A DNA stretch of 20,235 nt, taken from Candidatus Lindowbacteria bacterium RIFCSPLOWO2_12_FULL_62_27. Lineage in GTDB: Bacteria; Lindowbacteria; 2-12-FULL-62-27. A model generated the notes under the pieces. The model did no database searches. It saw nothing but the letters and a program-made list of their open reading frames with translations, and was not told where the DNA came from. The translations under genes were made by a program, and so were the position numbers. The stretch is taken from assembly GCA_001784175.1 (NCBI GenBank), contig MFPR01000012.1, forward strand, positions 62,001 to 82,235. Reading direction: 5' to 3'. This document shows positions 1-20,186 of the stretch, one piece after another (the stretch's first letter is position 1; each line of letters opens with the position of its first letter).

Positions 1-1330
1 CCTCCGGCTCCGCAAGGGCCTCCGGCGGCCCACACGGGTGCATGTCCGACGCGGCCGGATCGGGCGGCGCCGGCGTCAGGGCTTCGATGGGCGCCGCCGC
101 TTCGGGCGCGGCTAAAGGAATGGATTCATCTTTTTCCTTAGTTGCCGGCGCCGGCAGGACCGAAGGCGCAGAATCGGCGCGGGCCTGCGCCGGCGGCGCC
201 GTCGCGCAATTTTTGCAGAGCCACGCCGCGCCGCGAAGGAGCGCCCCCAGCGCGTCGGCCGGATCGGAGACGGCGCGCGCGAAGTCGTTCGCGTCCTGGC
301 CGTGCGGAAACTCGACGCGGAAACACTCAAAGCCCCGCGCGCACAAGATCGGCGCGAGCTTCGCCGCAGCGCGCTCGCCGGCGTCGTCGCGGTCGTAGGC
401 GATCAACACTTTTTTGATTCCGTATTTTTTGAACGCGGCCAGATGATCCTGTGTGAATCCCTCGATCCCGTAGCTGGCCGTGACGTTGCGGTATCCCGCG
501 CACCAGAACGTCAGCGCGTCGATCAACGCCTCGCACAAAATCACTTCGGTGGATGCGGCCAGGGCCGACACGTTCCAGACGCCTTTGTGCGGCCCGGGCA
601 AATACAAATGTTCCGGGGCGTCCCGGCTGGTCTTTTGGATTCGACGGCCGTAGATTTCGGTCACGGCGCCGCTTTCGTCGAACACCGGAAACTCGACGCA
701 GCCGCAAAAATGTTCCCGGAACGTTTCCCGATAAATGCCCAGACGCCGCAGCCGGTCCCGAAGGTCGCGGCCTTCCTTCACCGCCGAAAACGGCAGGCGA
801 TAGCCGAGCGTGCGGTTGGCGTAGCCGAGTTTGAAATGGTCAAGGGCGCCGGCGTGGCCGATCCGCCGGCGTTCGAGGTAAGCCAGCGCGTCCGGCGAGT
901 CTTTCAGGGTCTCGTGATAGAACTCGACGACCTGGCGCAGCGCCGTTTGATCGTCGGCGGTTCGTTCGATGGGCGGCGGAAGTTTTTTGACGGAGAGGGC
1001 GACCGGCGGGCGTTTGGGGTTGATCTGCGACAGCGCCACATCATGGCGGCGCAGAAGTTCGACGGCGTGCGTGAAGGACACGCCCTCCGCTTTCATCACC
1101 CACGCGATCACGTCGCCTCCGGCCTGGCACGCGCCGAGACAGTGCCAGAGATTTTTTTCCGGCGTAATCACGAGAGATGGTGAGTGATCCGAGTGGAAGG
1201 GACACAGGCCAATCAGGTCCTTTCCGTGGGGTTTCAATTCGACGCCGCGGCGTTGTGCCAGGTCCGCGACGCTCACGTCGCGTTTGATTCGGTCGAGTTC
1301 TTCTTGCGGGATTCGCCGGCGTGCTCCCAT
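1..1330 (-). CDS. CHC2 zinc-finger/Toprim DNA primase (primase-helicase copy A), runs off the window edge
   Basis: Manual translation from ATG 1330: MGARRRIPQEELDRIKRD...GLCPFHSDHSPSLVITPEKNLWHCLGAC (CHC2)...CEALIDALTFW...YDRDDAG...GQDAND (Toprim). Collinear with the protein at 7529-10627. Absent from the ORF track because no stop falls in the window. Confidence 0.93.
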   Translation of the reverse strand, partial: MGARRRIPQEELDRIKRDVSVADLAQRRGVELKPHGKDLIGLCPFHSDHSPSLVITPEKNLWHCLGACQAGGDVIAWVMKAEGVSFTHAVELLRRHDVALSQINPKRPPVALSVKKLPPPIERTADDQTALRQVVEFYHETLKDSPDALAYLERRRIGHAGALDHFKLGYANRTLGYRLPFSAVKEGRDLRDRLRRLGIYRETFREHFCGCVEFPVFDESGAVTEIYGRRIQKTSRDAPEHLYLPGPHKGVWNVSALAASTEVILCEALIDALTFWCAGYRNVTASYGIEGFTQDHLAAFKKYGIKKVLIAYDRDDAGERAAAKLAPILCARGFECFRVEFPHGQDANDFARAVSDPADALGALLRGAAWLCKNCATAPPAQARADSAPSVLPAPATKEKDESIPLAAPEAAAPIEALTPAPPDPAASDMHPCGPPEALAEPE

Positions 1331-1432
1331 ATTTCCCTTAGCTGCCTCTCTGCCCGAAATCGGGCGGTTTTGGAAAACGTGTCAAGGGGGTCGCTTCAAA
1401 AATTCGCTCTTTTTACGACCATCTAAAAACGA

Positions 1433-1467
1433 CTTGACTTATAGACCATTTGGTCTATACTGTCAAG
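1433..1467. promoter_or_regulatory. Overlapping divergent sigma70 promoters with a palindromic operator (module A)
   Basis: CTTGAC-T-TATAGACCA-TT-TGGTCTATA-CT-GTCAAG. Plus strand reads TTGACT-16-TATACT; minus strand reads TTGACA-17-TATAAG. Lies between the divergent XRE and primase genes. Confidence 0.75.
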
Positions 1468-1512
1468 CGTTATTTTGGAGAGGGTCTATCTGCAACTAAA
1501 AGGAGGAATACA

Positions 1513-1929
1513 ATGGACGTGGAAAAAAATTGTGAAGGAGTGATGTCTATGCCACGTCCACCGTCCAAGGCGTCGCGGAGGGATGCGAAATATAATCAAG
1601 AATTGGCCGAACGAATCAAAGCAGTCCGTAAGTCCCGAGGTTTAACGCAGGCAGAACTGGCGGAGAGAATCGGAGAAACGCAAAGGGCTCTTAGCCACTA
1701 CGAAATGGCTCAGCGCAGGCTACCGGCGGAGACTCTCTTGAAAATTGCACAGACATTACGAGTTCCAATGACAGAGTTGACCAATGGAAAGTATGTATCA
1801 CCGCCCAAAAATGGCCGAAAGCTTCGCGCGATCGTGGAAAAAATAGAAACGCTACCACCCAAAAAGCAACAGCAAGTTGTCGATTACATCGCGTTCATTT
1901 CCCAGAATGGCCAGCGCGTAGCAGCCTAA
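1513..1929 (+). CDS. XRE/HTH_3-family transcriptional repressor (module A)
   Basis: LAERIKAVRKSRGLTQAELAERIGETQRALSHYEMAQRR is a typical Cro/CI HTH. AGGAGG at 1501-1506 favours ATG 1513 over TTG 1450. Confidence 0.92.
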   Translation: MDVEKNCEGVMSMPRPPSKASRRDAKYNQELAERIKAVRKSRGLTQAELAERIGETQRALSHYEMAQRRLPAETLLKIAQTLRVPMTELTNGKYVSPPKNGRKLRAIVEKIETLPPKKQQQVVDYIAFISQNGQRVAA

Positions 1930-1987
1930 CCCGAAAAAGAAAAACCCCGAAGTCGTCGAGCCGCATCACGCGAATGTGATTGAAGTC

Positions 1988-2017
1988 GCGTCGCCTATGA
2001 CCGGTCATAGGCGACGC
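1988..2017. repeat. Perfect 30-bp palindrome 1
   Basis: GCGTCGCCTATGACC|GGTCATAGGCGACGC. Confidence 0.9.
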
Positions 2018-2157
2018 TCGCCGGCGACTCCCGCCGCGCGTGGCATGGCTCGCGGGCGCGGGAGCGCTTGCGCTCCCGGCGCGGCGCATTCGCGCCGCTC
2101 ACCCGCGAGAAAACCAGCCCCGCCCGGAGCAGACTTCCCAAGTACGAGCACCCGCCG

Positions 2158-2830
2158 CCCCAAAGCAAAACCAAACAGAGCAGAGCATATTTAAAGTCGC
2201 CGCCCCTCGTACGAGATTCGGGCACGGTCCCGCTGACATGGAGATAAACAGCTTGCGGTAGGGGCGTCGTCCTTCCACGCCGTGGCCGGACACTTCACCG
2301 GCCACGTCGCACGGCCGACGCCCCGGTATTGATGGGCCGGATCGGGCGTGACGTCCCTCCCCCATGCCTTGGTTTCCCCCCGTGCAGCCCCCCTTCCGAG
2401 GCACCCCCTCCAAGTAATCGGAACCCGCACGGGGGGAACCCCATCGGGGGAGGATGACGCGGCCCACGGAACCGGGCCGCCCGGCTACCTTGCGGCGAAA
2501 ATCGCTTCGCGGATTCTCTTCGCCGCAGCCGGGTCACGCCCGAACCATCCGGCCCAAATGAGATTGAGGCGGGACCGAAAAGAAAAAGCTGACGGGGCGG
2601 CGACAACACCGCCGGCGGTGACCCCTCCGTGGGGCGTCGTCGCTGACACCGGAGGCGACGACGTTGGCCGGCGGACATCGTGTCCGCCGGAAAGAAAACG
2701 GCGGCTGAAGGAAAAAAGCCGGCCCCGTGTTCGTCCACGCCGGAAGCGTTGCCGGTTCCTTCTTTCAGCTGCGGGTTTCCGGGTTCTGGATCCGCGCGGG
2801 ACACGATGTCCCGCGCCCAAGTTTGTGCCA
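2158..2830. ncRNA. Large structured non-coding element (RNA or ssDNA), copy A main part
   Basis: Nested long-range stems 2196-2206/2594-2604, 2225-2233/2569-2577, 2261-2269/2316-2324, 2343-2352/2533-2542, 2356-2363/2446-2453 and 2374-2385/2427-2438. Homologous to 11626-12270 with compensatory changes. No conserved ORF. Confidence 0.7.
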
Positions 2831-2893
2831 AGGCCGGCCAGTTGCGCAGGGGATCCGGAAGCGTGGATTTATCTTTCAGCTACCTGCTTTTGA

Positions 2894-3451
2894 TTACTGC
2901 GCCGCGTTGTTTCTAAAAAATCGAGGGATGTTGAATAACCAAAACAGTATTCTCCACAGGATAAAGGGAATCCATTTAAACTTTTCGGCCCGTTCAGCCG
3001 ATACACTCTTGCGAAAGTGATAATGAAATCTCTGGAGTAACCACCGACCAACATTTGGATTTTCGATATAGAGTCCAAACGCGGTCTGATTTTTCATTTC
3101 CGGTTCGTAGGAACTCCCAAAAGCGACTATAAATTTGGAGCCCTCGTCTACTGATATATACCGTGCCGTTCCAAAGGGTTTATAGCGAATCAATGCACCA
3201 ATTTTTTCAGCATGCGCCTTTGCCGTGTCCGTACCGACTTGTTTGAAAAACTCGATGTCCGTAATAATAAACCGAATTTTCAACTCATGGTTGTTTATAG
3301 CTCTTGTCGAAATGGCCTTGGCAAAGGGCTCGTTTTTCAGCCACGACATATCCTGGCCAATGGCGTTTATTTGGTCTTTAGCGGAGGTCACAAGCTGTAA
3401 CGCCTTCGTCAAGACTTCTTCTTTACTATTCAAACAGCTGAAATTGTCCAT
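2894..3451 (-). CDS. Low-GC cargo protein, possible TrmB-C/PLD-like fold, with a hydrophobic C-terminal tail
   Basis: 185-aa AT-rich ORF. The pattern SAKDQINAIG...KIRFII...RYISVD...GLYIENP...F resembles PLD-like/TrmB effector folds but lacks a clear HKD motif. The fold call is tentative. Confidence 0.7.
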   Translation of the reverse strand: MDNFSCLNSKEEVLTKALQLVTSAKDQINAIGQDMSWLKNEPFAKAISTRAINNHELKIRFIITDIEFFKQVGTDTAKAHAEKIGALIRYKPFGTARYISVDEGSKFIVAFGSSYEPEMKNQTAFGLYIENPNVGRWLLQRFHYHFRKSVSAERAEKFKWIPFILWRILFWLFNIPRFFRNNAAQ

Positions 3452-3478
3452 CTCGTTTCGTCTCCGATGTAATTGTAT

Positions 3479-3749
3479 GCGGACATTTTGTGTCCGCCTG
3501 GAAAAAGTGCGGCCGGATCAGGCGCGCGGTTCGGATTCCGTAATTTCGCCGCGCGGGACACGATGTCCCGCGCCCAGGATTGTGCCAGGGAGGGCCGTTC
3601 AATACATGCGGCCACCTCGTGGCCGCATCCGACAGCGGGCTATCGGCTGAGGCCGGGCTGGATCAGGTCTCCGACTCAATTCCCGGCCGCCGGGAACGCT
3701 GGCGTTCCCGCAGCCGACTACATACAAAAAGCGTTGCGAGAGGCGCAGA
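3479..3749. ncRNA. Structured element copy A, distal hairpin array
   Basis: Hairpins 3479-3497 and 3551-3573, GCGGCCAC-CTC-GTGGCCGC and GGGAACGC-TG-GCGTTCCC. Ends in AAAAGCGTTGCGAGAGGCGCAGA (3727-3749), identical to 12395-12417. Confidence 0.65.
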
Positions 3750-3752
3750 TCA

Positions 3753-3782
3753 GCGGCGCATATCACCGGTGATATGCGCCGC
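3753..3782. repeat. Perfect 30-bp palindrome 2
   Basis: GCGGCGCATATCACC|GGTGATATGCGCCGC; 24/30 identical to palindrome 1. Confidence 0.9.
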
Positions 3783-3865
3783 GGTGGAAACTTCGATCAC
3801 GGCCGGCGGCTCGTCGGGCTTCTGATTTCAAACAGCGGTCAGTCGGCGAATGTTACAATGTTAAA

Positions 3866-3904
3866 GAATGACCCCTTTTTCCTCGGAATGACCCCTTTTT
3901 TCCT
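3866..3904 (+). repeat. Short tandem direct repeat
   Basis: GAATGACCCCTTTTTCCT (3866-3883) and GAATGACCCCTTTTTTCCT (3886-3904). Confidence 0.85.
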
Positions 3905-3911
3905 ATGACTA

Positions 3912-4448
3912 CTATCCCGTAGGAATGATCCTTTCCCATCGCTTTCCATAAAATTCTCGAAGTCCTTTAAATATTCTAAAAATCACCCAAGAACTAAACA
4001 ATCCAAATCCGATAAAAATATAGGGCTTCCATGTTATATCTCTAACAAGACAACTATCACCCGGCCTTTGTGGATCATAGTAAACGGTGACCGAACTATG
4101 TTTAGGGAATTTCTTGACGATTGATTCCATGTTCTCCTTTGTACCTTCGGCAGAGCCGTCTATTGTATAATAATGACCAATGTAATACTCGCTGTTCACT
4201 ACGTACTCGTACGACATATTAATTCTAAATTCTTTTATGGGATATTCTGGATTTGCTATTTCTTTATAACCAATGTCTAATATCCTTCCATCCGCTACTT
4301 TCCAGTTGCCTATGTCATATTTAACACGAATGTCCCTAAAGCCAAAATATAGACCACCGATGGCTAAAAAGCCAAAAACTAGTACTAACATCACAACGCC
4401 CATCCAAAAGATTGAACTCGTCAAAATTACACGCGGATCTACTTTCAC
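3912..4448 (-). CDS. DUF3592-like membrane protein, putative immunity protein for Rhs tip 2
   Basis: N- and C-terminal TM helices flank NWKVADGRI...YEYVVNSEYY...VTVYYDPQRPGDSCL, the DUF3592 pattern. Low GC and directly downstream of the toxin tip. Confidence 0.8.
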   Translation of the reverse strand: MKVDPRVILTSSIFWMGVVMLVLVFGFLAIGGLYFGFRDIRVKYDIGNWKVADGRILDIGYKEIANPEYPIKEFRINMSYEYVVNSEYYIGHYYTIDGSAEGTKENMESIVKKFPKHSSVTVYYDPQRPGDSCLVRDITWKPYIFIGFGLFSSWVIFRIFKGLREFYGKRWERIIPTG

Positions 4449-4468
4449 GATAAAAATCTACAGCCTCA

Positions 4469-5758
4469 TCAGTTGAACATGGCCTCGACCATTCCTTGTA
4501 TCAACCTCATCCCGCCGTCCAATCCCTTTGTAAGAAATACAGCGCCAAGGCCGTCAGTGATCCGAGCCTTAAATGCAACATCAGCGGCAGCCACACCCCT
4601 AATACCGGCAAATACAGATTGAGCGAGAGCCTGTTTAAAAGTATCGAATATGAGATTGCGTGTTTCTTCAGATGACGCCGGGATGCCGTTGGCCTCAAGG
4701 GTGTTTACAACATACTGCGTTGCATTTTGGGAAAAACTCACCAAGCCCTGTGAAAATACACTGCCTCCAGCCGCCACCAATGTACCAAGAGTATAACCAA
4801 CGCCCCCACCTACAAAGCCTATTAAAAATCCCGATTTAAGCGCCGGCACAGTACCAATTTTTTTTCTCCATATCATGGCATTCGCCAACGAACCGACTAG
4901 GCCAGATATGGTACTCGCCGTCATGAATTCACCCAACGAAAATTCGCCCGACGGATCAATTGCGTTTATCGGGTTGCCACTAGTATAAAGATAAAGGCTA
5001 TTTTCATTACGAATAATTGCTTTATCGATACGAGGGTCTTCCGAGAGAAACCGGCCTGTTTCAGGAGAATAATATCGACTTCGGAAGAACACCAAATCTA
5101 TTTCCCTGTCAAACTCTCTTCCGGTATAGCTATAGCACTGTTCGAGGGCCTTGCCCGACGAGCGGACGATTTTTCCGAAGCTGTTGTAGGCCAGTTCTCC
5201 GGTGATCGTGCCATCCTTCCCGATCAACTCTGTAATGCTGTGGAGTCCGTCCCGCAAGTAGTAGTCGGTAGAAATTTCCTTGGTGGTTGGATTTTCTGTG
5301 TGAACAATAAACGGTTCATCATCTATATTACCAAAATCGATGTTTCCATCTGCCGGCCCATGGGTGAAATCCGTTGCGCCCCATGCGATCCAGAAGCCCG
5401 TCAACTCTCCAAGCCCTTGTGCGGTTTCGGCTAAAGGGGATGCGGTGTCTTCATAAGCCGTTGAAAAAATATCTGAAATTTTGCGCGACCCCCTGATGCG
5501 ACTTTCCACCCCCTCACTCATGTCCGTTGCCGATCGAGCAATCGCATCAGAGGGGTTTGGGACTTCCTGTTTCTTCGGTGATTCCGTGGGCGTCCATGCG
5601 CCGGGGAACGGAATCACATCTATCTTCACACGCCGATTTGTCGGACGTGATTGAGTGGGTCGAGACGCTACGCGCGCCGGATCGAGGGCCAGAGCGCCGA
5701 ACGTCGGACACACAGCCGACCTCGAAGGACGCGCGGGAAAAGCGATGACCTTGCTCAC
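4469..5758 (-). CDS. Orphan Rhs core end plus toxin tip 2, fused in frame to a non-Rhs N-terminal leader
   Basis: FTHGP...DEP...YYLRDGLHSI...YNSFG...YTGREFDREIDLVFFRSRYYSPETGRFLSEDP...NPINAIDPSG, followed by a Gly-rich hydrophobic tip. Rhs similarity starts at about 5369. Confidence 0.88.
   Translation of the reverse strand: MSKVIAFPARPSRSAVCPTFGALALDPARVASRPTQSRPTNRRVKIDVIPFPGAWTPTESPKKQEVPNPSDAIARSATDMSEGVESRIRGSRKISDIFSTAYEDTASPLAETAQGLGELTGFWIAWGATDFTHGPADGNIDFGNIDDEPFIVHTENPTTKEISTDYYLRDGLHSITELIGKDGTITGELAYNSFGKIVRSSGKALEQCYSYTGREFDREIDLVFFRSRYYSPETGRFLSEDPRIDKAIIRNENSLYLYTSGNPINAIDPSGEFSLGEFMTASTISGLVGSLANAMIWRKKIGTVPALKSGFLIGFVGGGVGYTLGTLVAAGGSVFSQGLVSFSQNATQYVVNTLEANGIPASSEETRNLIFDTFKQALAQSVFAGIRGVAAADVAFKARITDGLGAVFLTKGLDGGMRLIQGMVEAMFN
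5353..5369. repeat. 17-bp direct repeat, candidate att site (copy 2)
   Basis: CCGGCCCATGGGTGAAA, identical to 13872-13888. Confidence 0.75.
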
Positions 5759-6015
5759 ATCGGCACCAGGCCGCTAAAGACGGTCACGCGTTCCGGCAAG
5801 ACCGGCCACGGTCTGCCGGGCGGTCCAACAATCTCTCGCGGCTTGCCGAACCGCGCCCGCGCGAGTTGATGACCGACGCGCCGCTCTTTAAGTTTTCGAA
5901 TTTGTTTTTGTAAACGGAAACGCTCTGTCCCCACCGTCGAGAGCATCCGGACGGTGAGGCGTTGAATCTTCTGCTCTGTCCGATCCAAATAGGCGTTACC
6001 CGTTGGAAGATTCAT
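5755..6015 (-). CDS. Small basic hypothetical protein
   Basis: ATG 6015 MNLPTGNAYLDRTEQKIQRL... Its stop overlaps the next ATG (ATGA, 5755-5758). RBS is weak. Confidence 0.4.
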   Translation of the reverse strand: MNLPTGNAYLDRTEQKIQRLTVRMLSTVGTERFRLQKQIRKLKERRVGHQLARARFGKPREIVGPPGRPWPVLPERVTVFSGLVPM

Positions 6016-6064
6016 CAAGGGAAATATAGCACAATCCCAGGAGAGCAACAACAAAATTGTTCCG

Positions 6065-6325
6065 TCAAATTCCTCTGTAAACCTCGCGCCGATGGCGTAC
6101 ATAGTAGACGATCACCAGCCGCGCGGCCGTGTCCACTTCGTAGACGATCCTGTAATCTCCCACGCGAATCCGCCAGAGCCGTTCCGCATTCGACAGTTTG
6201 ACGCATTGATTGGGAAAGGGGTTGGAAGCCAGGGAGTCAATCCATCGCCGGATCCGGGCCACCATCCCGGCGGGTAAACGACGCAGGTCTTTCCAAACGG
6301 ACGGCTTTACTTCAACGCGATACAT
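6065..6325 (-). CDS. relE: RelE/ParE-family type II toxin
   Basis: MYRVEVKPSVWKDLRRL...WRIRVGDYRIVYEVD...VRHRREVYR, the RelE signature. Confidence 0.93.
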   Translation of the reverse strand: MYRVEVKPSVWKDLRRLPAGMVARIRRWIDSLASNPFPNQCVKLSNAERLWRIRVGDYRIVYEVDTAARLVIVYYVRHRREVYRGI

Positions 6326-6503
6326 TCCGTTTGAGCCGCCGCTTCATGTCCTCCCAGCTGATCGTTTTTTCCCGCCGCCGTTCGGCCACCACCGCCAGAT
6401 CGTGCAGGTCTTCGACCATCTGCTCGTAGCGTTCAATCGGCAGAATCGCCGCCGTCCTTTTGCCTTTGGGGTCAACCACAAACTGCGCTTGGGCTTTGTT
6501 CAT
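6312..6503 (-). CDS. RelB-like antitoxin
   Basis: 63 aa, FVVDPKGKRTAAILPIERYEQMVEDLHDL...ISWEDMKRRL. Overlaps the relE start and the integrase stop. Confidence 0.85.
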   Translation of the reverse strand: MNKAQAQFVVDPKGKRTAAILPIERYEQMVEDLHDLAVVAERRREKTISWEDMKRRLKRNVSR

Positions 6504-7501
6504 AATGGAAGCATACCAACGTCGCCGTCCTCTGGCAATTTTTGTTCATCCGGTTTGAGTTTTGCGGCGGGGTGCGTGGCGGTGTGAATCTCCTTGAGCT
6601 TTTTGATGGCGACGTGCGTGTAGATTTCGGTCGTCTGTAGGACCGCGTGGCCAAGCATCGCCTGAATGTAGCGGATGTCCGCGCCGCCTTCGAGCATGTG
6701 GGTGGCGCAGGTGTGGCGGAACAGGTGGGACGCGCCGCGATGGGTTACGCCGCATTTGCTCAAATGCGAGATCACGCACGCGGTCAGACGGCCGCGGGGC
6801 ATGCGGCGGCCGGCTGGCGTGAGAAAGAGCGCGCCCGGGTCCGGCGGTGTGACCAGATGCGGGCGTCCGTCATGGAGAAACGCGCGGATCCAGCGGCAGG
6901 CGCGCTCACCGATGGGGACGACGCGGTCTTTGCGGCCCTTGCCCTGGCGGACGAAAACGATGCCGGTCTCAATGTCCACGTCGTCGACGTTCAGGTTGCA
7001 GACCTCCATCCGGCGGATCGCCGTTGAGTAGAGCGTTTCGAGGATGGCGCGGTCCCGCAGGCCCAGGGGCGTGCGAAGGTCGGGCGCGTTCATGACGCGG
7101 CCGAGTTCCTCCTGGTTGAGGATTTTTTTCGGCAGGCGTTTGTCACGGCGTGGAATATCAATGTCGGCGACGGGATTGTAGAGGACAAGATTTTGTTTGG
7201 CGAGCCAGCGGAAAAAGGACCGGAGGTTGGTGAGGACGGTGTTTTGATAGGCGAGACTGATGGGCCGGTCGGTGCGGGGGTTGATCGAGTGAAAGAGAAA
7301 CCGCTGGAAGCGTTCGACGATGGGGCGCGTGACTTCGGTGGGACGTAACACGCCGCGCTCCTCGCACCAGATCGTAAATTTTCGAAAGGAATAGATGGCG
7401 CGGTTGAGCGTGTCGGGTGTGTGGCCTTTGACTTGCATCGCCTCCGTGTACTGCTCGATCCGCGCGGCGAATCCGGCCAGATCGCGCTGGGTGTCGCTCA
7501 T
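6500..7501 (-). CDS. XerC/XerD-like tyrosine recombinase (element integrase)
   Basis: SAM-like N-terminus. Catalytic R (TAIRRME), K (GKGRKDRVVP), HLFRH, LGH and Y (TTEIYTHV) are all present. Confidence 0.96.
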   Translation of the reverse strand: MSDTQRDLAGFAARIEQYTEAMQVKGHTPDTLNRAIYSFRKFTIWCEERGVLRPTEVTRPIVERFQRFLFHSINPRTDRPISLAYQNTVLTNLRSFFRWLAKQNLVLYNPVADIDIPRRDKRLPKKILNQEELGRVMNAPDLRTPLGLRDRAILETLYSTAIRRMEVCNLNVDDVDIETGIVFVRQGKGRKDRVVPIGERACRWIRAFLHDGRPHLVTPPDPGALFLTPAGRRMPRGRLTACVISHLSKCGVTHRGASHLFRHTCATHMLEGGADIRYIQAMLGHAVLQTTEIYTHVAIKKLKEIHTATHPAAKLKPDEQKLPEDGDVGMLPL

Positions 7502-7528
7502 CTTTAGCAGCTAAGGAAAAAAATATTG

Positions 7529-10500
7529 CTACGACGCCGTTTTGGGGCGCTTGGCGTCTTTCTCTTTTATATGCGTTTTCGCCCGATTTTTGAGAAGTGC
7601 GTTTGAAGCGGTCGGCGTTGTTGGAGTTGCGGAAGAATCCACACCCGGACCACCCCCGGACCGGGGGCGGACCGCGCCCGGACCGGACCCGGACCGCGAT
7701 CCCTCCGACCCGGACCGGTCGGCATTTTGCCAGGACCGGTCGCCGTCGTAAGGCTGTTCGAGTGTGGCCGGATCGATCAGGCCCATGCAAAACGGCGCGC
7801 CGTCCTTGCCTTGGCCGTCGTAGATCAACTCGTAGACGAAGGACTGACCGCGCCCGCGGTGGAGGATGAGAAACTCCATTTCGACCAGGCGCGCCATGTG
7901 GATTTTGAGCGGCGTGTCGCTCCATCCCGTGAACTCGCGTACGTCGCGGCGGCCGAACCGGAAAGCGGCGCGGGTTATTTTGCCGCCGTTTGTTTTCGCC
8001 GTCACCATGTCGTCAAGAAGAGTGAGCAGGCGGCGTGTCTGCGGCTGGAGTTCATCGAGGGACCGGCCGAGGACGACGTTGGCGATGCGGTTGGCGCCCT
8101 CGATGTCTTTCGGCATGACCTCGATGTAGGAAATCACGCGCGGGCCGTCCTGCGTTTGTTTGACGGGGCGCTGGTACTGATGCAAAAGCGCAATGGACCG
8201 GATCAGCGTCAGATATTTCGGATGGTCGCGCCGCGTCCGCAGTTGGGTGCTCAAGAATTTGAGTTGTTTGGCGTAGCGGTTCACGACGCGGATCGGGCGC
8301 AAAAGGCGCTGGGCGTTTTGGTGGCGGCGCAGGATGTCGTCGCGCCGTTCCTGACGCAGGACGCCCTCAAGCGTCTCGCGTTCGCGCTGTAGCTCGTGGA
8401 TCCGCTCCGTCTGCTCGCGGTCCTCGTTGATCGTGATGACCAGGACGCGGTTTAGGAGTTCCTCGTCAATCTCGTAATTGGTCGTCGTGATGATGATGAC
8501 GACCGGCCCCTCGACTCTCGACTCAAACGCGACGTGCTTGCCGGTCGTCGGGTCTTTGCCGGTGGACGCAATCACCAGCTTGCCCTCGCTCTGTAGAAGT
8601 TTGATCGCGTAGGTGGCGTTCTCCGCGCCCTTTTCCTCGACGATGGCGAGGATTTTGTGTTTGAGATTTTTTTCGCCCATGTAAAAGAGTGCCTGGCCGG
8701 TGACGGCGCTGAATTGTTCGCGCTCCTCTTTCGGCATGAGCGACAAAATGGCGTCCATGAGCGTGGTCTTGCCGGCGGCGCTGGCCGACTGGATGATGAT
8801 CGCCAGCGGGTCTTTGAACTTGCGCGACACGCACGCGAGGTATCCGGTGAGGGCGTTGACTTCCTCTCCGACAATGCCGATGGACTCGAAGTCCTTGACG
8901 ATCTGGTCCAGCAGATCGGGCGCGCGAAGAAACGCCAGCGCTTCCTCTTTCTCCGCCTCGGTTAACGTCACGGTTGCATCTGGCGGGTTGATCGCCTTTT
9001 GGATGAGGTTGTCCTGGAGTTCTTCGAGTTTCAGAAGCAACCGGCGCAGGTCGTCTTTCAACATATCTTCGGACAGGCTGGTCTCGGTCGAAGCGGCTTT
9101 GAGAAACGCCGCGCGGTGCCTGGCGTTTGCCAGGTCCACGGTGTCGAGGTGGAAGCGGTCGCCGATCGACACGCGCACGCTCACGCGCAGGACGCCGTAG
9201 GTCGTGTTCTTTTCAATGCCGCGAATCCGCCACGCGCGGCCGTCAAAGACTTCATCGAGTTGGTGGCCGTTACCGGACGGGATCGCCGCCGCCTCCGGCC
9301 TCGCGTGGGCCTCCAGCGGCGCGCACTCGTGCAGATCCGCCGCGGCCGGATCAGCGCCTCCGGCGCCACAAGTGCCGATGTCTCCGACATCGGCCGGATC
9401 GGGCGCCGCCGGCGTCAGGGATTTCTCGCCTGGTGATTCTTCGGCGGCTGAAGGTGGAGAAATTTTTTCTTTAGCTGCTACCGGCATGTCTACGATTGAC
9501 GATTTGCCTCTGCCGATCCACGCCGCGCCGCGAAGGAGAACTCCCAACGCGTCGGCCGGATCGGAGACGGAACACGCGAACGAGTTCGCGTCCTCACCGT
9601 CGGGAAAGTTTACGCGCGACACTTCGAAGCCGTATCCCATCAGGATCGCCGCCAGTTTCGTCGCGGCGCGGTCGCCTGCCTCGTCCCGATCATAGGCGAT
9701 CAACACTTTTTCGACTTCGGACATCCTGAGCGCATGGAGATGATCCGCCGTGAATCCCTCGACACCGTAGCTGGCCGTGACGTTGCGAAAGCCCGCGCAC
9801 CAGAACGTCAGCGCGTCAATGAGGGCTTCGCACAGGATCGCTTCTTTACTCGCCGCTAAAGAAGAAACATTCCAGACGCCCTTGTGCGGCCCGGGCAGAT
9901 AGAGGTGATAGGCCGTCCCGTCGCGCAGGTCGTCCCGAATCTTGCGGCCGTACATTTCGGTGATGCTTCCGTTTTCGTCCATCACGGGAATGACGATACT
10001 GCCGTTGAATCGTTCATGACCTTTGACGCTGTAGACGCCGAGTCGTTGAAGCTGGCCGCGAATCTTCGCGCCCTCGTCGCGGTTTGAGTCGGCGAGATAG
10101 TAGCCGAACGTTCGGTTGGAATAGCCGAGTTTGAAATGGTCGATGGCGCCGGCGTGGCCGATCCTGCGGCGTTCGAGGTAGGCTAGGGCCTCCGGCGAAT
10201 CTTTGAGCGTCTCGACGTAGAAATCGACGGCGCAGCGCAGCGCCGTCTGATCGGACGCGCCGATCGGAATGGGACAGGGAAGTTTTTTGACGGTGCCGAC
10301 TTTGACGACGGGCCGGGCAGTCGCCGGCGTGAGCGCGACGTCATGCCGGCGCAGAAGTTCGACGGCCTGACGGAAGGACACGCCCTCCGCTTTCCGAACC
10401 CAATCGATCACGCTGCCGCCCTTCGGGTCCTGGCACGCGCCGAAACAGTGCCAGAGGTTTTTGTCAGGCGTGATGACAAGAGACGGGTTGTGATCGTTGT

Positions 10501-10627
10501 GGAAGGGGCACAGGCCGATCAAGTCCTTGCCATGCGGCGCGAGTTCGACGCCGCGCCGCCGCGCGAGGTTGGCGACGGCAACGGCTCGTTTGATTCGTTC
10601 AAGCTCTTCGTCAGGAATCCGTCCCAT
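7529..10627 (-). CDS. CHC2 zinc-finger/Toprim primase fused to a P-loop (AAA+/MCM-like) helicase (copy B)
   Basis: CPFHNDH...WHCFGAC; CEALID/YDRDEAG/GEDANS; Walker A SASAAGKT; Walker B LAIVEE; ELLNR. Start set to ATG 10627 by alignment with copy A. Confidence 0.94.
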   Translation of the reverse strand: MGRIPDEELERIKRAVAVANLARRRGVELAPHGKDLIGLCPFHNDHNPSLVITPDKNLWHCFGACQDPKGGSVIDWVRKAEGVSFRQAVELLRRHDVALTPATARPVVKVGTVKKLPCPIPIGASDQTALRCAVDFYVETLKDSPEALAYLERRRIGHAGAIDHFKLGYSNRTFGYYLADSNRDEGAKIRGQLQRLGVYSVKGHERFNGSIVIPVMDENGSITEMYGRKIRDDLRDGTAYHLYLPGPHKGVWNVSSLAASKEAILCEALIDALTFWCAGFRNVTASYGVEGFTADHLHALRMSEVEKVLIAYDRDEAGDRAATKLAAILMGYGFEVSRVNFPDGEDANSFACSVSDPADALGVLLRGAAWIGRGKSSIVDMPVAAKEKISPPSAAEESPGEKSLTPAAPDPADVGDIGTCGAGGADPAAADLHECAPLEAHARPEAAAIPSGNGHQLDEVFDGRAWRIRGIEKNTTYGVLRVSVRVSIGDRFHLDTVDLANARHRAAFLKAASTETSLSEDMLKDDLRRLLLKLEELQDNLIQKAINPPDATVTLTEAEKEEALAFLRAPDLLDQIVKDFESIGIVGEEVNALTGYLACVSRKFKDPLAIIIQSASAAGKTTLMDAILSLMPKEEREQFSAVTGQALFYMGEKNLKHKILAIVEEKGAENATYAIKLLQSEGKLVIASTGKDPTTGKHVAFESRVEGPVVIIITTTNYEIDEELLNRVLVITINEDREQTERIHELQRERETLEGVLRQERRDDILRRHQNAQRLLRPIRVVNRYAKQLKFLSTQLRTRRDHPKYLTLIRSIALLHQYQRPVKQTQDGPRVISYIEVMPKDIEGANRIANVVLGRSLDELQPQTRRLLTLLDDMVTAKTNGGKITRAAFRFGRRDVREFTGWSDTPLKIHMARLVEMEFLILHRGRGQSFVYELIYDGQGKDGAPFCMGLIDPATLEQPYDGDRSWQNADRSGSEGSRSGSGPGAVRPRSGGGPGVDSSATPTTPTASNALLKNRAKTHIKEKDAKRPKTAS
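7647..7741 (+). repeat. Helically phased GGACC(G) repeats, iteron-like
   Basis: GGACC at 7647, 7658, 7669, 7680, 7691, 7712 and 7733, plus one off-phase copy at 7685. Confidence 0.7.
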
Positions 10628-10726
10628 ATTTCCCGTATCCACCGATCCGCCCGAAACGGGCGTTTTTTGAAAATGTGTCAATGCCGGGTGGGATAATTTT
10701 CGAGACGATTTAACCCACCCGAAAAC

Positions 10727-10776
10727 CTTGACAAACAGACGCCAATTATTTACATTTTATGCAAATAGAAGTCAAG
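10727..10776. promoter_or_regulatory. Divergent promoter/operator region (module B)
   Basis: Inverted CTTGAC (10727) and GTCAAG (10771) enclose the imperfect palindrome TATTTACAT-TTT-ATGCAAATA. Confidence 0.6.
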
Positions 10777-10869
10777 ACGTTTTTTGGATATTTTCCAACC
10801 AAGAAACGGTGCGGGCCAGAGCGGAGATAAACTGGAGGTGATGAAGGTTTGCTTTCTGGAGATAGTATA

Positions 10870-11250
10870 ATGAAACTACAGAAACCGAAGCCGGAGACTT
10901 TCGGATTCCGTCTACAGCAGTTTCGGCTGCAACGGGGTCTGACTCAGGCCGAGATTGGGAAGAAGATCGGGCTGTCGCTGCGGATGCTGAGCTACTACGA
11001 GGGCAACCACGGCCGCCTTCCGCCTGTCGATGTCGTGATGAAATTGGCGAAGGTGATTCGTGTGCCTGTTGACGATTTGCTTGGCGCCGACGCCTCCGAC
11101 TTCGGGCCGCCGCCGCGTTCCGTCAGGCTGCTAAAGAGATTGCGCCGGATCGAGCAGCTGCCGCGCCATCACCAGCGAGCGATCATGGAACATTTGGACG
11201 CGCTCCTGGCAAAACGCGCCAACGGCAATGGCCGGCGCGTGACTGCCTAA
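10870..11250 (+). CDS. XRE/HTH_3-family repressor (module B)
   Basis: FGFRLQQFRLQRGLTQAEIGKKIGLSLRMLSYYEGN HTH. Start is ATG 10870 or TTG 10849. Confidence 0.92.
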   Translation: MKLQKPKPETFGFRLQQFRLQRGLTQAEIGKKIGLSLRMLSYYEGNHGRLPPVDVVMKLAKVIRVPVDDLLGADASDFGPPPRSVRLLKRLRRIEQLPRHHQRAIMEHLDALLAKRANGNGRRVTA

Positions 11251-11610
11251 ATGGGCGGCGACGATTCCGAGCAAACCATTCGACTGCTGACGGAAATCAG
11301 GGACCAACTCAAGCGGATCAGCGCGAAGCTTTCAAATCTGGACGATGTCCGTGTCGGTATCAACGAGCTTGTCCGATATTTTTATGACAGCAAGCCTCGA
11401 TCGCCGTTGGATGATACAGGAAAAAAATACAGCCCCCAAAAAATTCGAGAAGAACATCCCCAAGCATATCAGCCGTGGACGTCCCAGGAAATCGAACGAG
11501 TGGAAAGGGGTCATTCGGAAGGCAAAAGCATAAGGGAGTTGGCCGCCGACCTCGGACGACAACCGGGTGCGATTCGGTCCAGATTGAGTAAATCCGGCCT
11601 GCTAAAATAG
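11251..11610 (+). CDS. Small protein with a C-terminal Myb-like/HTH domain
   Basis: AYQPWTSQE...GKSIRELAADLGRQPGAIRSRLSKSG. Starts immediately after the XRE stop. Confidence 0.8.
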   Translation: MGGDDSEQTIRLLTEIRDQLKRISAKLSNLDDVRVGINELVRYFYDSKPRSPLDDTGKKYSPQKIREEHPQAYQPWTSQEIERVERGHSEGKSIRELAADLGRQPGAIRSRLSKSGLLK

Positions 11611-11625
11611 AAATTCACACATCAC

Positions 11626-12417
11626 CCCCAAAGCAAAACCAAACAGAGCAGGGCGTATTAAAGTCGCCCCGCCTGGGCAGAAGTGTGGGCACGGCCCGCT
11701 CGAATTGTGGGCGATGACCACTTACACGTAGAACGCGCCGGCCTCTCGCGCCGCGAAAAACGCGCGGCGCACGGCCGGCGCTCCGACGACGAGCGGGGCG
11801 GACCGCGCCCCCCGCCGCAGGTTCTCCTCCCCTCAACCTCTCCTCTCCTTGGCATCCCTGTAATAAGGAAGCATCAATGAGGGGAGGAGACCCAGCTCTT
11901 GGGGGGCGCTACGCCGGCGGCCTCCGTCCCTCCGCCGAACATGTGGCGCAACGTCCTGTTGCGCCACCGGCTCCGGAACTCCGGCCTTGTCGTTCCGCCC
12001 CGAACTTCCCGCACACGCGGGCCTCACTGACACCTGAGCTTGTACGGCGGGGCGAGAATCCGCTGTAGGAGACCCATCCATGGGGCGGCGTCACTGACAA
12101 TCTGGGGTGACGCCGACTGGCCGGCGGACATCGTGTCCGCCGGAAAGAAAACGGCGGCTAAGAAAAAAGCCGGGCACAAGCGCGGCCGCGCCGGAAGCGT
12201 TGCCGGTTCCTTCTTTCAGCTGCGGGTTTCCGGTTTCAGGATTCGCGCGGGACACGATGTCCCGCGCACAGCTTCAAGCCATGGACGGCCGTGCGGGCAC
12301 TTCGTGACCGCACCCGAAAGACGGGGTGTCGGCGTGAGCGGCCACGAATGTGGCCGCGCCGGGAAATCAGGATTTCCCGCACGCCGAATGATGCAAAAGC
12401 GTTGCGAGAGGCGCAGA
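11626..12417. ncRNA. Large structured non-coding element (RNA or ssDNA), uninterrupted copy B, ~790 nt
   Basis: Stems 11664-11673/12046-12055, 11693-11699/12017-12023, 11735-11743/11773-11781, 11794-11802/11994-12002, 11805-11813/11901-11909 and 11823-11835/11878-11890, then a hairpin array. Same topology as copy A. Confidence 0.72.
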
Positions 12418-12424
12418 CCCAAAG

Positions 12425-12650
12425 ACGGCGACAGGGCGCTGAACGTATCCGGCGTAAACGTCACCCCGGTGAGCCGGTCCAGCGCGTCGTAGCCGTACTG
12501 CCGCGTTCCGTGCCGGTCCGTCATGGCAGTGCGGTTGTCGTTTGAGTTGTACTGATACCGGAAAAAACTCGTGAGCGCGCCGGCGTGCAGGTGTTCGATA
12601 TCGGTCACCCTGTTTTTCGAATCGTATTTCCATTCCGACACCAGCTTGCC
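12425..12650 (-). pseudogene. Displaced internal Rhs YD-repeat fragment
   Basis: GKLVSEWKYDSKNRVTDIEH...YQYNSNDNRTAMTDRHGTRQYGYDALDRLTGVTFTP. High GC. Rhs similarity ends where the structured element begins. Confidence 0.85.
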
Positions 12651-13105
12651 CCCTTTTCTTTCCTACTTTTGCTAGGGCAGAAAATAAGAAGTATAGTCAA
12701 AATAATTGCGAAAGCCACAACAAAAATATGCACGCACGTCAAAAACAAAACAAAATTAATGGTACCCATAGTACCCAAATAATTGTCTAGTACATAATTA
12801 TATTTTGATAAGATATTATTTACAAAAATAGGAAAATCGCTATTATTAGAATACATGAAATAATGCACGAAAATGAAAAACGATATCGACCAGCAAAACA
12901 AGATGATATAATTAATCAGAATATTCGAATTCCGCTTTCTTATAAGAAAATAAATTAAATGCGCAACGATTAAGAAAAGGTTACCCGCTGCCAAGATCAC
13001 CCTATCGTCGATAGATTTAATAAATATACCTATAACAAAAACAGATATATACACCGACACTATGAAGCGGGGAAATTCACGCAACGAAGAATAATCAAAC
13101 TTCAC
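12605..13105 (-). CDS. Multi-pass membrane protein, putative immunity protein for Rhs tip 1
   Basis: 166 aa with about 4 hydrophobic segments, very AT-rich, 2 bp downstream of the tip 1 stop. Confidence 0.8.
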   Translation of the reverse strand: MKFDYSSLREFPRFIVSVYISVFVIGIFIKSIDDRVILAAGNLFLIVAHLIYFLIRKRNSNILINYIILFCWSISFFIFVHYFMYSNNSDFPIFVNNILSKYNYVLDNYLGTMGTINFVLFLTCVHIFVVAFAIILTILLIFCPSKSRKEKGASWCRNGNTIRKTG

Positions 13106-13107
13106 TT

Positions 13108-13888
13108 TTATAAATCTGCTTGTAAATCTTGTGGAACTGAAGATTTGATTAACTCATAGGCTTCATCATTTGTACTAAAGTTCTGCCTCAACCATGTCCA
13201 ATCCTTGTCCTTACCTTCTTCGATAATTTTCTGCAGATTAGTTCTAAATGTTGTTACACTAGTCTCTAATCCTTCCAACGTCGTTTTCTTTGATGCGGAT
13301 ATATTACCGGTTAGTGCACTATTAATGTTTCTCAGCATTTGAGAGGCCTTCGCATTTAATAAGTCTAGTTTGGATTTATATATTGCTTTCAATAATAATT
13401 TAAAGCCATATGCGGCCACACTAACTACTATCGCACTAACAACCAGTTTCTCGATTAGTGTAAGCTGCCCGAACGGATCCACAGAATTAATAGGGTTTCC
13501 TTCTGTATATGTATACTTGTGATGGGTTTTAGGTTGATCAAGAGATTTAAATACGTTTTCGGACTGTAAGAAATTCCCGCCAATAGGATCATAATATCTA
13601 GCGCGGTAAAAAATGAGGCCAATTTCATCATCGTGTTCCCTGCTGGTATATCCATAGATGTCGGACGGTGGCGTTTCGGTAGGATCGTGACCGGATGGAA
13701 GCAGGATTCGCTTTCCGTAGGCTTTATAATCGTATGTTTTTACGGTTTCGCCTGTCGGGGTCAAAACTTCACGGACAGAATTTTGGGCGTCGTGCAAAAA
13801 GAAAAATTTTGCCGGCGGCGCTCTTGTGCCCGATGTTCCTTGTGTATATGCAATCAGCGGTTCATCGATGCCCGGCCCATGGGTGAAA
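13108..13888 (-). CDS. Rhs core end plus toxin tip 1, out of frame with the upstream Rhs gene and lacking its own credible start
   Basis: FTHGPGIDEPL...HDAQNSV...YKAYG...YTSREHDDEIGLIFYRARYYDPIGGNFLQ...NPINSVDPFG, then a low-GC tip. Confidence 0.85.
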
Positions 13889-16800
13889 AAGTGATACCTG
13901 TCAGGTGCCCGTTGCCGTCGCGCTGATAGCCGACGGATCCTTCGGGATTGGTCATCCGGGTCAGAACCTCTCCTCCGGCCCACTCCCGCGTCTCCGTCCG
14001 AACCGCGCCCGACGGCGAGCGGGTGGTCTGCTCCACCAGGTTGCCAGACCCGTGATATTTGTTGGTGATGATCGTGCCGTCGGGATCGGCCTGCTCGATG
14101 AGCCTGCCTTGACTATCGTATTTGTAGCGGGTGGTTTGTCCTTGCGCGTCCGTCATGGAGATGCGGTTTCCGAATCCGTCGTAGGAGTACGTGTTCACAA
14201 GGGCGCTGTCGGCAAAGACGGACGTGAGGTTGCCGTATGCGTCGCGGCCGTACGTCCAGACATGACCCTCCGCGTCGGTCATTCCCACGCGCCACCGGCT
14301 GCTCCAGCGGTAGGTCGTGATGTCGGCGTTGTTGCGACGCATGACAACAGGATTTCCGTGCTCGTCATATTCGATCTCGGTGACGACGTCCTGAGGCCCC
14401 GATCCGCCGCCCAGCGTTACGCCTGTCGTCCGCGTTTTTGTGAGATCGCCATGCTCATTGTATGAAAATTCCCGGACACTGCCATCGGGGTCGACCGTCC
14501 GGGTAACGCGACCCTGAGGATCATATGAAAAATTCGTGGTGTGGCCATCGATCGTCTCGGAAAGAATCCAGCCCTCCTCGTTGACGACGCGGCTTGTGCG
14601 GCTTCCTAGGCTGTCCCTGCGTTCGACGATGTGTCCGGCTTTATCGTAGGAAAAATTCTCGACAAGGTCGCCCCTCTTCTTCTCTAAGAGCCACCCTTGC
14701 GTGTTGTAGCGCCGCTCAACCGGCGGTAGGCCGCCCACCACGCCCAGCCTAGTCAGGTTGTTGTTGGCGTCATACTCGGCCTCCATCTCCATCGCGATGC
14801 TCTCGCGGCGGATGCGGTTTACCCGCCCGGCAAGATCGTATGAAAAATGCGTGGCATGATCTCCCGTTTGAACATCCGAAAGACGGCCGGTCCCGGCTTC
14901 ATAGACAAAATCCGACGTGTAGGCGTGCGGCCCGCTCTGCGCAAGAATGCGGGTAAGACGGTTTAATCCGTCATAGGTCGCGGACAACGCGACGGTGGGA
15001 TCGGCGGAAGTTGAGCCTTGAGACGTAAGGCCGGTGATCAATCCACGTCTGTTGTACGAAAGATTCGTCGTCAGAGGCGAAAGTCCGGGCGAGGCGCGGA
15101 CATGCCGGGTCAGGCGGCTTTCAGGATCGTAGGTCATCGCCTCCGCTTCGGCCCCGTCCGAAAATTGCGTGAGATTTCCCAGCGCGTCATAATTCATGGA
15201 CGTTGCGCGCGGGTTTGCCGATCCACGGATCATGGAGGTCGGGCGATTGAGCTGATCGTACCCATAGGAAATCCTGAGGCCGTCCGGCCGGCGCTCCTCA
15301 ATCATCAGGCCACGCTCGTCAAAGGAGTAGTCTGTTCGGACGGCGCCGACGCCGCTTACGTTTCTCTGAACGGAGGCCAGTCGGTCAGAGGCTGCGTACT
15401 CGAAGGCGATCGTTTGCCCGTTGGGGCTGGAAATTTCCGTCACATTTCCCCAGCCGTCGTACGCCACAGCCGTGACGAGGTCGGATTCATCCCCGCCAAG
15501 CGCGACGCCTACCGTCCGGAGGGTCGCGGGCCGGCCCGCGTCGTCATACGAAAAAAGTGTCGTGCCGCCGGGGCCTTCCTCTTTGTCGGGCAGGCCCATG
15601 GATTCTTTTGTTCCATAGGTCAAGGTTGTTGTAGATGCAGGCGTCGTCACGCGGCTTACATTGCCATTCGCGTATTCCAGCGCGGTCGTGCCCCGTGCCG
15701 GGTCCGTCATGACGGAAACTGTTCCGTCGGCGTTTCTTCCCACGGAAAACGCAATATCCCCGCTTTCGGATTTCAGAAAATTTCCGGCGGAGTTGTAGGC
15801 GAAATTCACAGGAGAGGATGAAATGCCCTCCAGTCGACCCGGGTGGTTTCGTTTCGGATCGAAATCATCAAGGTTGTCTGGGTAAGTCCACGTGACAGGA
15901 TCGGAGCCGGTCCATCGGGCCAGGTTCTTCATGCGGTCGTATTCGAGAGAGATCGCGTGTCCGTTCGCCTCCACGATTTGGGACGGTCTGCCCAGCGTGT
16001 TCCACTGAAGGGTTGTGGCCGCGTTATGTGGGTCTGTGACTGCATCGATCCGGCCCCCACCGATGGGCTGTCCGGCGAGGTCGAAATTTCGCCACGGGTC
16101 GTACATGACGGCCGTGAACGCGCCCGCCGCGTCGATCAGGCTGGTTTTGTTTGTCACGATCCCGCTTGACGGCTCGTACGCGAGGCTCAAGCGCCCGTCC
16201 GGCGGGGCGATGGAGATCGCGCGGTTGAAGGGGTCGTATGCGACTGAAACCTGATGGGGGCCTTGGCGAACTTCCGTCATAAAGCCGGCAGGAGCGTAGG
16301 TGTATTCTATCGGGTCCCCGGCCGGCCGCGCCACACCCGCCAGCTTGGCCGTTTCGTCGGGACGGCCATCCACATATAAATACAAATATTGAAGCAGGCG
16401 TCCCATTGCGTCGGTGATTTTCGTGATGAGCTGTGATCCGGGGAGATATTCAAAAAGCAGCGTCCGGGACGTGCTGGCGGAAACGACCTGCGTGAGACGC
16501 GCCTCATCGTCGTAGTCGAGGTCGACGGCGTTGCCGTTCGGGTCCTCGATCCGAGTAAGCTGGGCGATCCGCGTCCGTCCTTGGAGAATATCGAAGGTAT
16601 ACCGCGTGCCGTCCTTGCGGGTCATCTCCAGACGTTTTTCGGAAGTCTTGCGCAGGCGCATCGGTTCCGCGCCCGTTCCGGTGACCTGTCGATACTCGAT
16701 CAGTTCACGTCCGTCGACGATCGTTTTCTCGATCGGCCACGGCCGGATGAACGTGTGACGCGTGCCGTCCTCGTCGATCAGGATCACCGCCGTGTCCAGC

Positions 16801-19111: not shown

Positions 19112-19133
19112 CCACCTCCCCTCAAACCGGCGC

Positions 19134-19161
19134 AGGGTAGCTAAAAAAGATGGAATGTCAA
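19134..19161 (-). promoter_or_regulatory. Putative sigma70 promoter of the TPR-Rhs operon
   Basis: TTGACA-16-TACCCT on the minus strand, in an AT-rich gap. Confidence 0.5.
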
Positions 19162-19194
19162 GTAGAATTTCTACATATTACGACACAACTTAAA

Positions 19195-19743: not shown

Positions 19744-19744
19744 G

Positions 19745-20179: not shown

Positions 20180-20186
20180 TTGTCTA

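Follow-up and report, generated by a model that had tools for sequence, protein, structure and literature searches.

A probable integrative element that attaches at the core/tip boundary of Rhs and CdiA toxins, and an apparently mis-targeted tandem pair in a Lindowbacteria genome

Results

In the genome of Candidatus Lindowbacteria bacterium RIFCSPLOWO2_12_FULL_62_27 (G000, 4.39 Mb) we analyzed a stretch of 20,235 nt, positions 62,001 to 82,235 of contig MFPR01000012.1 (C12:62001-82235), referred to here as the window. On its minus strand, the open reading frame (ORF) listing and the Pfam matches place a 1644-aa Rhs ORF, followed by two consecutive elements of ~9 kb. Taking the locus together with its relatives, we consider it probable that these are copies of an integrative element that replicates itself and attaches at the boundary between the core and the tip of a polymorphic toxin, so that integration would exchange tips and repeated events would build arrays; here the element would have been mis-targeted. 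What is directly observed is the anatomy of the elements, their sites and their association with toxins, together with precise in-frame switches between core and tip in relatives and a twofold read depth at this locus.

Each unit carries, in the same order both times, an Rhs tip, a small immunity-like gene, a structured non-coding region, a divergent XRE gene and a primase-ATPase. In element 1 these are followed by a tyrosine recombinase gene and by a gene pair of RelB/ParE type; element 2 is likewise complete, with its remainder to the left of the window on C12. An earlier, sequence-only reading of this DNA had described the unit as present twice, with collinear primases and with repressors, operators, tips and immunity genes that differ, and this held: the primases align collinearly with 57.6% identity over ~1050 aa, the XRE repressors are 34% identical, the tips have just the Rhs core-associated domain in common (32-34%), and there is no match between the immunity-like genes. 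The operators are unlike, yet each is flanked by CTTGAC...GTCAAG, and the ends of the two elements are 74% identical over 97 bp. The second integrase expected further left also exists (C12:59213-60196, 63% identical to integrase 1). The two-unit array is therefore real, but two other parts of that reading, a full-size Rhs gene and a third 17-bp site, did not survive. The host genome has just two primases of this family, the tips find no match at any other of its loci, and both elements lie inside its sole Rhs-core gene.

Three junctions and both elements could be mapped to base precision. The 5′ part of the host Rhs gene (13854..18788, minus strand), with YD repeats and DUF6531, falls short of full size: the ORF ends at 13854, which is 34 nt beyond site A, it has no tip, an NCBIfam profile search found no core-associated domain in it, and it is out of phase with tip 1. 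Site A, the attL-like left border of element 1, is the 17-bp sequence TTTCACCCATGGGCCGG at 13872..13888 (minus strand), and its second copy, site B (5353..5369, minus strand), forms the attP-like junction between the end of element 1 and the start of element 2. Genome-wide, this sequence has exactly two copies at up to two mismatches (0.001 exact copies would be expected by chance), and no third copy exists at that tolerance; the far border outside the window, site C (C12:58278-58282), shares only TTTC with sites A and B. After site C come a 748-aa 3′ part of Rhs (C12:56078-58324), a 362-aa immunity-like gene (C12:54990-56078) and housekeeping genes, which from their motifs we take to be nrd and pur. 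At the shared TTTC, the codon phase is 2 both in the Rhs 5′ ORF and in the Rhs piece after site C, and 0 in tips 1 and 2 and in the leaders of the two elements. The simplest reading of this sequence is that one Rhs gene was cut mid-core by two out-of-phase elements. Since the elements are out of phase, neither tip is fused to the carrier at this locus. A homologue search did not confirm that the two Rhs halves are collinear, its top outside matches being 21-30% identical. A sequencing error as the cause of the frameshift at site A was rejected, there being no indel row at that place in any of four runs, and a programmed frameshift at the short T run of the site was judged unlikely. A leftover Rhs YD-repeat fragment (RHS_repeat match; 12440..12641, minus strand) lies within element 1. 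Its end falls at a YD-repeat position of the kind at which the host Rhs is broken, a hint of a possible prior insertion at an equivalent mid-core site.

The primase family comprises at least 8,000 clusters at E<=1e-50, with no relatives in viral contigs or phage records. We drew relatives from three overlapping samples (400, 401 and 301 genomes) in which two candidates were scored per genome, so the counts are floors; the reference collection holds only four genomes from the host's phylum. Linkage of the primase to Rhs tips, on which the sequence-only reading had staked itself, was borne out by homologues linked to polymorphic-toxin tips. Co-oriented Rhs/CdiA sequence stands beside the element in 11 of 17 distinct primase-selected genomes, two of which are sample centres (G246 is weak and G546 counts by motif only), against none of eight control loci with distant primase matches. 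As for the remaining genomes, G109 is ambiguous, G005 has no carrier, and four contigs of 1-5.8 kb show nothing. The elements of G005 (L061:11623-12719, L062:1163-2533, L062:8699-9747) have repeated flanking tip/immunity-like pairs of no recognised family. Among 34 plasmid records, 11 were inspected and nine are linked to Rhs or CdiA/FHA; two of these nine, from Lonsdalea and Shigella (11.3 and 8.8 kb), are circular records of element size. Locus L010 is an exception, with a hydrolase and the gene following it. In E. coli, the integrase and element end occur in 56 of 5,426 complete genomes. We inspected nine E. coli records, six at the ansP-vgrG Rhs locus, two at the kdp locus and one fragmentary (IH5); eight are Rhs-linked. 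The same tandem layout is found in complete genomes. Many contigs that bear the primase (5.5-7.9 kb; L048, L009, L072 and L042) are themselves element-sized, starting at a tip motif or stopping at an element end, as expected of repeated or circular units. In two Leptospira plasmids (L082 and L084), the primase-integrase module stands between a 'peptidase M23' gene and parA/parB, among large backbone repeats.

At 10 of 16 loci outside this genome, similarity to the carrier sets in abruptly past the element end. It does so at a conserved motif, which is DPIG, YNYFR or RYLQS in Rhs and VENN or a nearby position in CdiA, with equal offset in tandem copies. An in-frame state is partly inherent in aligning homologous coding DNA; it is the abrupt start, along with the unrelated DNA upstream, that carries information. 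Long core homology between orphan and carrier, as homologous displacement would call for, was not found at the junctions, which share 4-17 nt. G790 has an 8,850-bp tandem duplication, 99.7% identical, that begins at the core motif inside the carrier ORF, and behind the last copy stands another tip; as the duplication starts there, the carrier's tip is part of the element unit. The clearest switch comes from two E. coli genomes, JNE120442 and 200164, which have a common cassette running from the first base of the DPIG codons with no differences in 700 nt and one in 1,730. In JNE120442 the cassette is in frame within a 1531-aa Rhs at the ansP locus, in 200164 it lies directly behind the element end at the kdp locus, and the DNA upstream of it is unrelated in the two; the direction of the switch is not readable. 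Other modules diverge within ~13 nt of the first DPIG base, and this identity is therefore too short for homologous recombination. In G790, G998, MP1/R12 and others, the carrier that immediately precedes an element is intact and keeps its frame.

The element end often codes for an ORF in frame with whichever tip follows. In G001 the leader of element 1 is kept and is joined at TTTC, in phase, to an Rhs piece related to the host 3′ part. The leader looks, by eye, like a lipoprotein signal in Enterobacter, Salmonella and Erwinia, and is absent in E. coli, G998 and Paraburkholderia (7-12 open codons). In CdiA-type elements (L040:14489-15352, L083 and L015), a lipoprotein-like leader is in frame with an orphan VENN tip and is annotated as 'adhesin'.

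We compared four of the 15 listed sequencing runs, no RNA run being among those listed, over C12:57201-77200, using contig graphs with 31-letter words; the values of X1 and X2 are near-identical, and all four runs are possibly the source of the genome. Raised coverage, which the sequence-only reading had suggested looking for, was indeed seen: contig depth was 14.8-18.6 in the elements against 8.0-8.5 in the flanks in X1, 35.3-46.1 against 17.6-20.9 in X5, and 10.6-19 against 6.6-8.8 in X7, about twofold overall. In all four runs contigs end at the start of site A and on both sides of site B (its start and its inner end), and the Rhs 5′ contig extends unbranched over 30 bases of tip 1; the left-flank contig of X5 enters end 2 and stops 29 bases past the end of the site C core. 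It follows from these breaks that ends 1 and 2 have two successors each and tips 1 and 2 two predecessors each, while tip 1 is the sole successor of the Rhs 5′ part. The branch points thus imply junctions of end 1 to tip 1 and of end 2 to tip 2, and the graph fits either monomer circles or an array of the form E1-E1-E2-E2; the extra depth may also reflect a second chromosomal copy elsewhere. An empty site or a duplication of the element pair is at odds with the branching, and a duplication of the whole array (E1-E2-E1-E2) was ruled out because site B would then stay unbranched.

All features of element 1, the operator-like repeat apart, are on the minus strand unless stated. Tip 1 (13108..13888) joins an Rhs core-associated domain to a C-terminal domain of ~115 aa, helical in a low-confidence fold, and the hydrophobic, low-GC putative immunity gene 1 behind it (12605..13105, 166 aa) has no Pfam or NCBIfam family. 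Structured non-coding region 1 (11640..12430), with 23-bp palindromes at 12245-12267 and 12121-12143, is followed on the plus strand by a 119-aa HTH protein (11251..11610; Pfam and PHROGs scans) located behind XRE repressor 1 (10849..11250; Pfam), which is divergent from the primase. Operator-like inverted repeat 1 (10727..10776), read directly from the sequence, lies between the two. Primase-ATPase 1 (7529..10681) has a CHC2 zinc finger, toprim and a C-terminal P-loop region (PF27228, MTBMA_p00010_2nd), which may be a helicase. Then come tyrosine recombinase 1 (6500..7501), the RelB-like/ParE-RelE toxin-antitoxin (TA) pair (6065..6503; Pfam), a small ORF (5755..6102) also found after the integrase of a relative in G001, and the element end (5370..5758), which encodes a leader of ~130 aa in frame with tip 2. 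In element 2, also on the minus strand, tip 2 (4469..5369) has an Rhs core-associated domain and a hydrophobic, Gly/Ala-rich C-terminal domain, and is followed by putative immunity gene 2 (3912..4448, a DUF3592 membrane protein), structured region 2 (1930..3760; palindromes at 3551-3573, 2794-2816 and 2668-2690), XRE repressor 2 (1450..1929, plus strand; Pfam), operator-like inverted repeat 2 (1433..1467, strandless and again read directly) and the 5′ part of primase-ATPase 2 (1..1330), which continues past the window edge to C12:60223. A second putative TA pair lies between integrase 2 and site C; variant letters in this region are accounted for by a 92% copy on contig C26.

Both integrases pass the NCBIfam cut-off of NF002331 (PRK01287), with 383 and 382 against 371 bits, and their catalytic residues appear intact by eye. 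They fall below the XerC and XerD equivalog cut-offs and below that of the integron integrase TIGR02249 (109 and 104 bits against 265). TIGR03696 was above its cut-off in all three tips. The variable domains of tips 1-3 matched no family and gave no confident fold; single-sequence folds reached a pLDDT of 49 for tip 1 and 35 for tip 3. A PDB sequence search gave no matches for tip 3 or for the ATPase half of the primase. The C-terminal domain of tip 3 (L001:12081-12560, on C12) shows an M15 peptidase-like pattern, a likeness that found no support in Pfam, PDB or the predicted fold, and the gene downstream of this tip opens with a hydrophobic anchor. By their position and composition, the tips are putative toxins and the small genes behind them putative immunity genes.

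The structured regions fold well beyond shuffles (z -6.6 as DNA and -5.9 as RNA) and have no Rfam matches at E<=1. Part of the structured region is common to G001 and to further loci of the host genome. Half of region 1 (11650-12080) recurs with 81-87% identity at C27:81159-81551, C27:61957-62155 and C28:94515-94943, next to restriction-modification-like, LexA/S24 and integrase genes in mobile-looking loci; as half of it recurs elsewhere in the host, the idea of an element-specific region was partly rejected. A small unit with an integrase and an XRE gene and no primase (L002, C9:34247-37019 of G000) shares part of structured region 2, and its XRE is 36-40% identical to those of both elements. 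Inside region 2, a 185-aa ORF (2894..3451, minus strand) sits like a cassette between two copies of a palindrome-bearing 48-bp repeat (2792-2839 and 3549-3596); it is absent from element 1, and its PLD/TrmB-effector-like fold is a lead only. A host repeat of ~55 bp (9343-9397), with dozens of copies genome-wide, lies in frame in the linker of primase 1, which suggests that element 1 has been resident here for a while.

Ahead of the Rhs gene are ordinary neighbours, a 158-aa ORF, a dCTP deaminase and a dUTPase (18635-20206). Elsewhere in G000, several extremely long ORFs rich in YD motifs (3,600-22,000 codons from stop to stop) occur on C6, C2, C14, C34 and C12; they show no match to the Rhs tips.

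Discussion

The mechanism that we propose starts from the layout of the element, with the tip and its immunity gene first, and the primase-ATPase, the integrase and the end sequence last. Excision would yield a circle that brings the end up against the tip, and the primase-ATPase would replicate this circle. The integrase would insert it at a matching motif of a toxin gene, making the switch: the new tip would join the resident core in frame, and its predecessor would be displaced behind the element as an orphan. With the attachment core at the core/tip boundary, integration would therefore exchange tips, which would act as toxins, and tandem arrays would arise by repeated arrival or by amplification; the element would also pass between cells by some route. 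At this locus, landing would have occurred at a secondary TTTC site, mid-core and in the wrong phase, and the host's only Rhs-core gene would for that reason be broken instead of re-armed. On the whole the evidence supports the sequence-only reading, with qualifications. That reading had proposed landing at the Rhs 3′ end; relatives do sit at a core/tip motif, but here the site is mid-core and out of phase, and CdiA is targeted too. Of its other proposals, tandem accumulation is seen in relatives, as is in-frame delivery of tips; here the tips were not delivered onto the carrier, and between close E. coli strains the differences in copy number fall in stretches of homology, away from the site.

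We would extend this to the family with more reserve. It may be the missing episomal pool and dedicated recombinase for tip exchange, made up of multi-phylum self-replicating circles, each recognising a toxin motif (DPIG, VENN or HGP) and re-arming Rhs or CdiA carriers in one step, with a leader (signal-peptide-like in the CdiA type) that keeps the displaced tip expressed; on present evidence we find the case for and against this wider view evenly balanced.

Several observations weigh against an element that exchanges tips at the core/tip boundary. At this locus, delivery of the tip is out of phase, the core shared at site C is just 4 bp, and no empty site was seen in the contig graphs of four runs; circles and tandem copies are indistinguishable there, as junction-spanning contigs fall outside the displayed set, which leaves out 602 pieces and 316 loose ends. 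Among the outside loci, six of the 16 have no clear junction, and the shared core varies between lineages. In EC10, SCU-113, KW21 and 200164 the left junction is in an orphan module and not in a carrier. R12 and MP1 differ by one unit, with a crossover in homology ~700-770 nt upstream of the core, and KW21 and EC10 likewise, with a crossover in homology further upstream and off the site; since these crossovers fall in homologous stretches, site-specific loss was rejected for both pairs. The two Leptospira plasmid records lack an Rhs/VENN carrier and an orphan tip, the element following a 'peptidase M23' gene of ~2,000 aa, and L007 has MobA upstream. The element-sized circular records may be true circles or collapsed tandem repeats. 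In E. coli, 41 of the 56 matches are ≥99% identical and are therefore not independent. No transfer or packaging genes were found in the elements.

A selfish parasite would behave in much the same way: the toxin motif would be a reliable landing site, the tips hitch-hikers or addiction modules under the element leader, and exchange on the carrier an occasional by-product. The broken host gene, the frequent position of elements behind orphan modules, and the in-frame leader-tip fusions together with TA pairs, which would fit addiction, all suit this explanation. It is the same mechanism as an element that exchanges tips, differing only in the beneficiary, and we consider it rather unlikely in view of the intact in-frame carriers directly upstream of elements in G790, G998, MP1/R12 and others, and of the precise switch between carrier and orphan.

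We give much less credence to arrays formed by ordinary homologous recombination (C-terminal displacement) with a satellite-like element as a bystander. The E. coli copy-number changes at homologous stretches and the long-core orphans within the same arrays speak for such a process, but junction and carrier share an identity of only 4-17 nt with unrelated DNA upstream, the linkage is well above the controls, and both elements lie in the genome's sole Rhs-core gene. It is more improbable still, indeed very improbable, that the array is an assembly chimera of two separate elements or strains, although no listed contig spans the whole region and the elements have twice the depth. The contig graph, built from short-read contigs, fits the assembled order, on which the sequence-only reading depended: in all four runs the Rhs 5′ contig passes into tip 1 with no branch, and in X5 the left flank continues into end 2. 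Moreover, the Rhs halves are in phase and the tandem layout recurs in complete genomes.

Among known systems, phage satellites (PICI, P4-like) and other primase-integrase elements are ~9 kb long, with a tyrosine integrase, a divergent XRE, a primase-ATPase and accessory TA genes. The present element likewise has a tyrosine integrase, flanking att repeats (17-bp and 4-bp cores), a primase module and a divergent regulator. It differs in its short XerC-like integrase (PRK01287), which is downstream of the primase and co-oriented with it, and in its target, the toxin core/tip boundary. No packaging or helper-interference genes (terS, capsid or capsid-size proteins, AlpA) were found among 19 ORFs compared with Pfam and seven with PHROGs, several small ORFs being family-less, and no relaxase family of the kind expected in an integrative mobilizable element appeared in the ORFs scanned with Pfam and NCBIfam; the palindromic structured region is a candidate oriT. 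Genomic islands that integrate in a coding gene bring a replacement end, the attP side holding the 3′ part of the target gene. Here, unlike in such islands, what arrives as the 3′ part is another, variable toxin domain together with its immunity gene, and the same protein is not restored. Integrons resemble the element in having a tyrosine recombinase beside an array of exchangeable cassettes, and here one ORF even lies between palindromic repeats, but the present integrases score far under the integron cut-off and each unit has its own integrase and replicase. IMEX use the host XerCD at dif, whereas each unit here has its own recombinase and the sites lie within Rhs coding sequence. The locus otherwise looks like an Rhs polymorphic toxin locus, with its YD-repeat core, core-associated domain, variable tips and small downstream genes, save that the carrier is split. 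The element thus acts like a satellite-type integrative element and yet lacks the features of packaging, relaxase, integron and IMEX systems.

The closest precedent is the work of Jackson et al. (2009; PMC2935791), whose available text predicted episomal circles of tips and knew of no Rhs-linked integrase. In the C-terminal displacement described there, as in our proposal, an incoming tip pushes the resident tip downstream via a circular intermediate, leaving arrays of orphan tips; the difference is that the tip of the present element travels with its own recombinase and replicase and that the junctions share 4-17 nt. Integrases adjacent to Rhs in Snodgrassella and Gilliamella (Steele et al., 2017; PMC5727410) and XerC/D genes beside polyimmunity loci (Zhang et al., 2012; PMC3482391) have been suggested to aid exchange, and the accessible parts of both papers place a recombinase near arrays but define no primase, no attachment site, no circle and no boundary of an element. 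As reported by citing work, Martinkus et al. (2026) describe Xer-dependent systems beside poly-immunity arrays in Xenorhabdus and Photorhabdus, which may overlap with ours. We found no description of the element in full-text literature, a search that most subscription journals and all supplements lay outside. A term search of Ogier 2016, Poole 2011, bioRxiv 2025.05.08.652813, PMC8138268, PMC11278526, PMC3032704, PMC8386352 and PMC4758244 found no mention of its primase or Xer-like integrase, and PMC4428218 and PMC10210955 name a primase or XerC in other contexts only. The genes are routinely annotated in public records and the parts are known; what we claim as new is the element and its site.

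How Rhs and contact-dependent inhibition (CDI) weapons acquire and swap their tips has been an open question since 2009 (PMC2935791), and the element offers an integrase and a replicon with defined sites. With at least 8,000 primase clusters and intact copies in cultured E. coli such as MP1, the question is directly testable, and the element would account for the function of PRK01287, a large 'xerC' subfamily that is routinely annotated. To this the window contributes a natural mis-targeting event and an apparent signal of amplification in situ.

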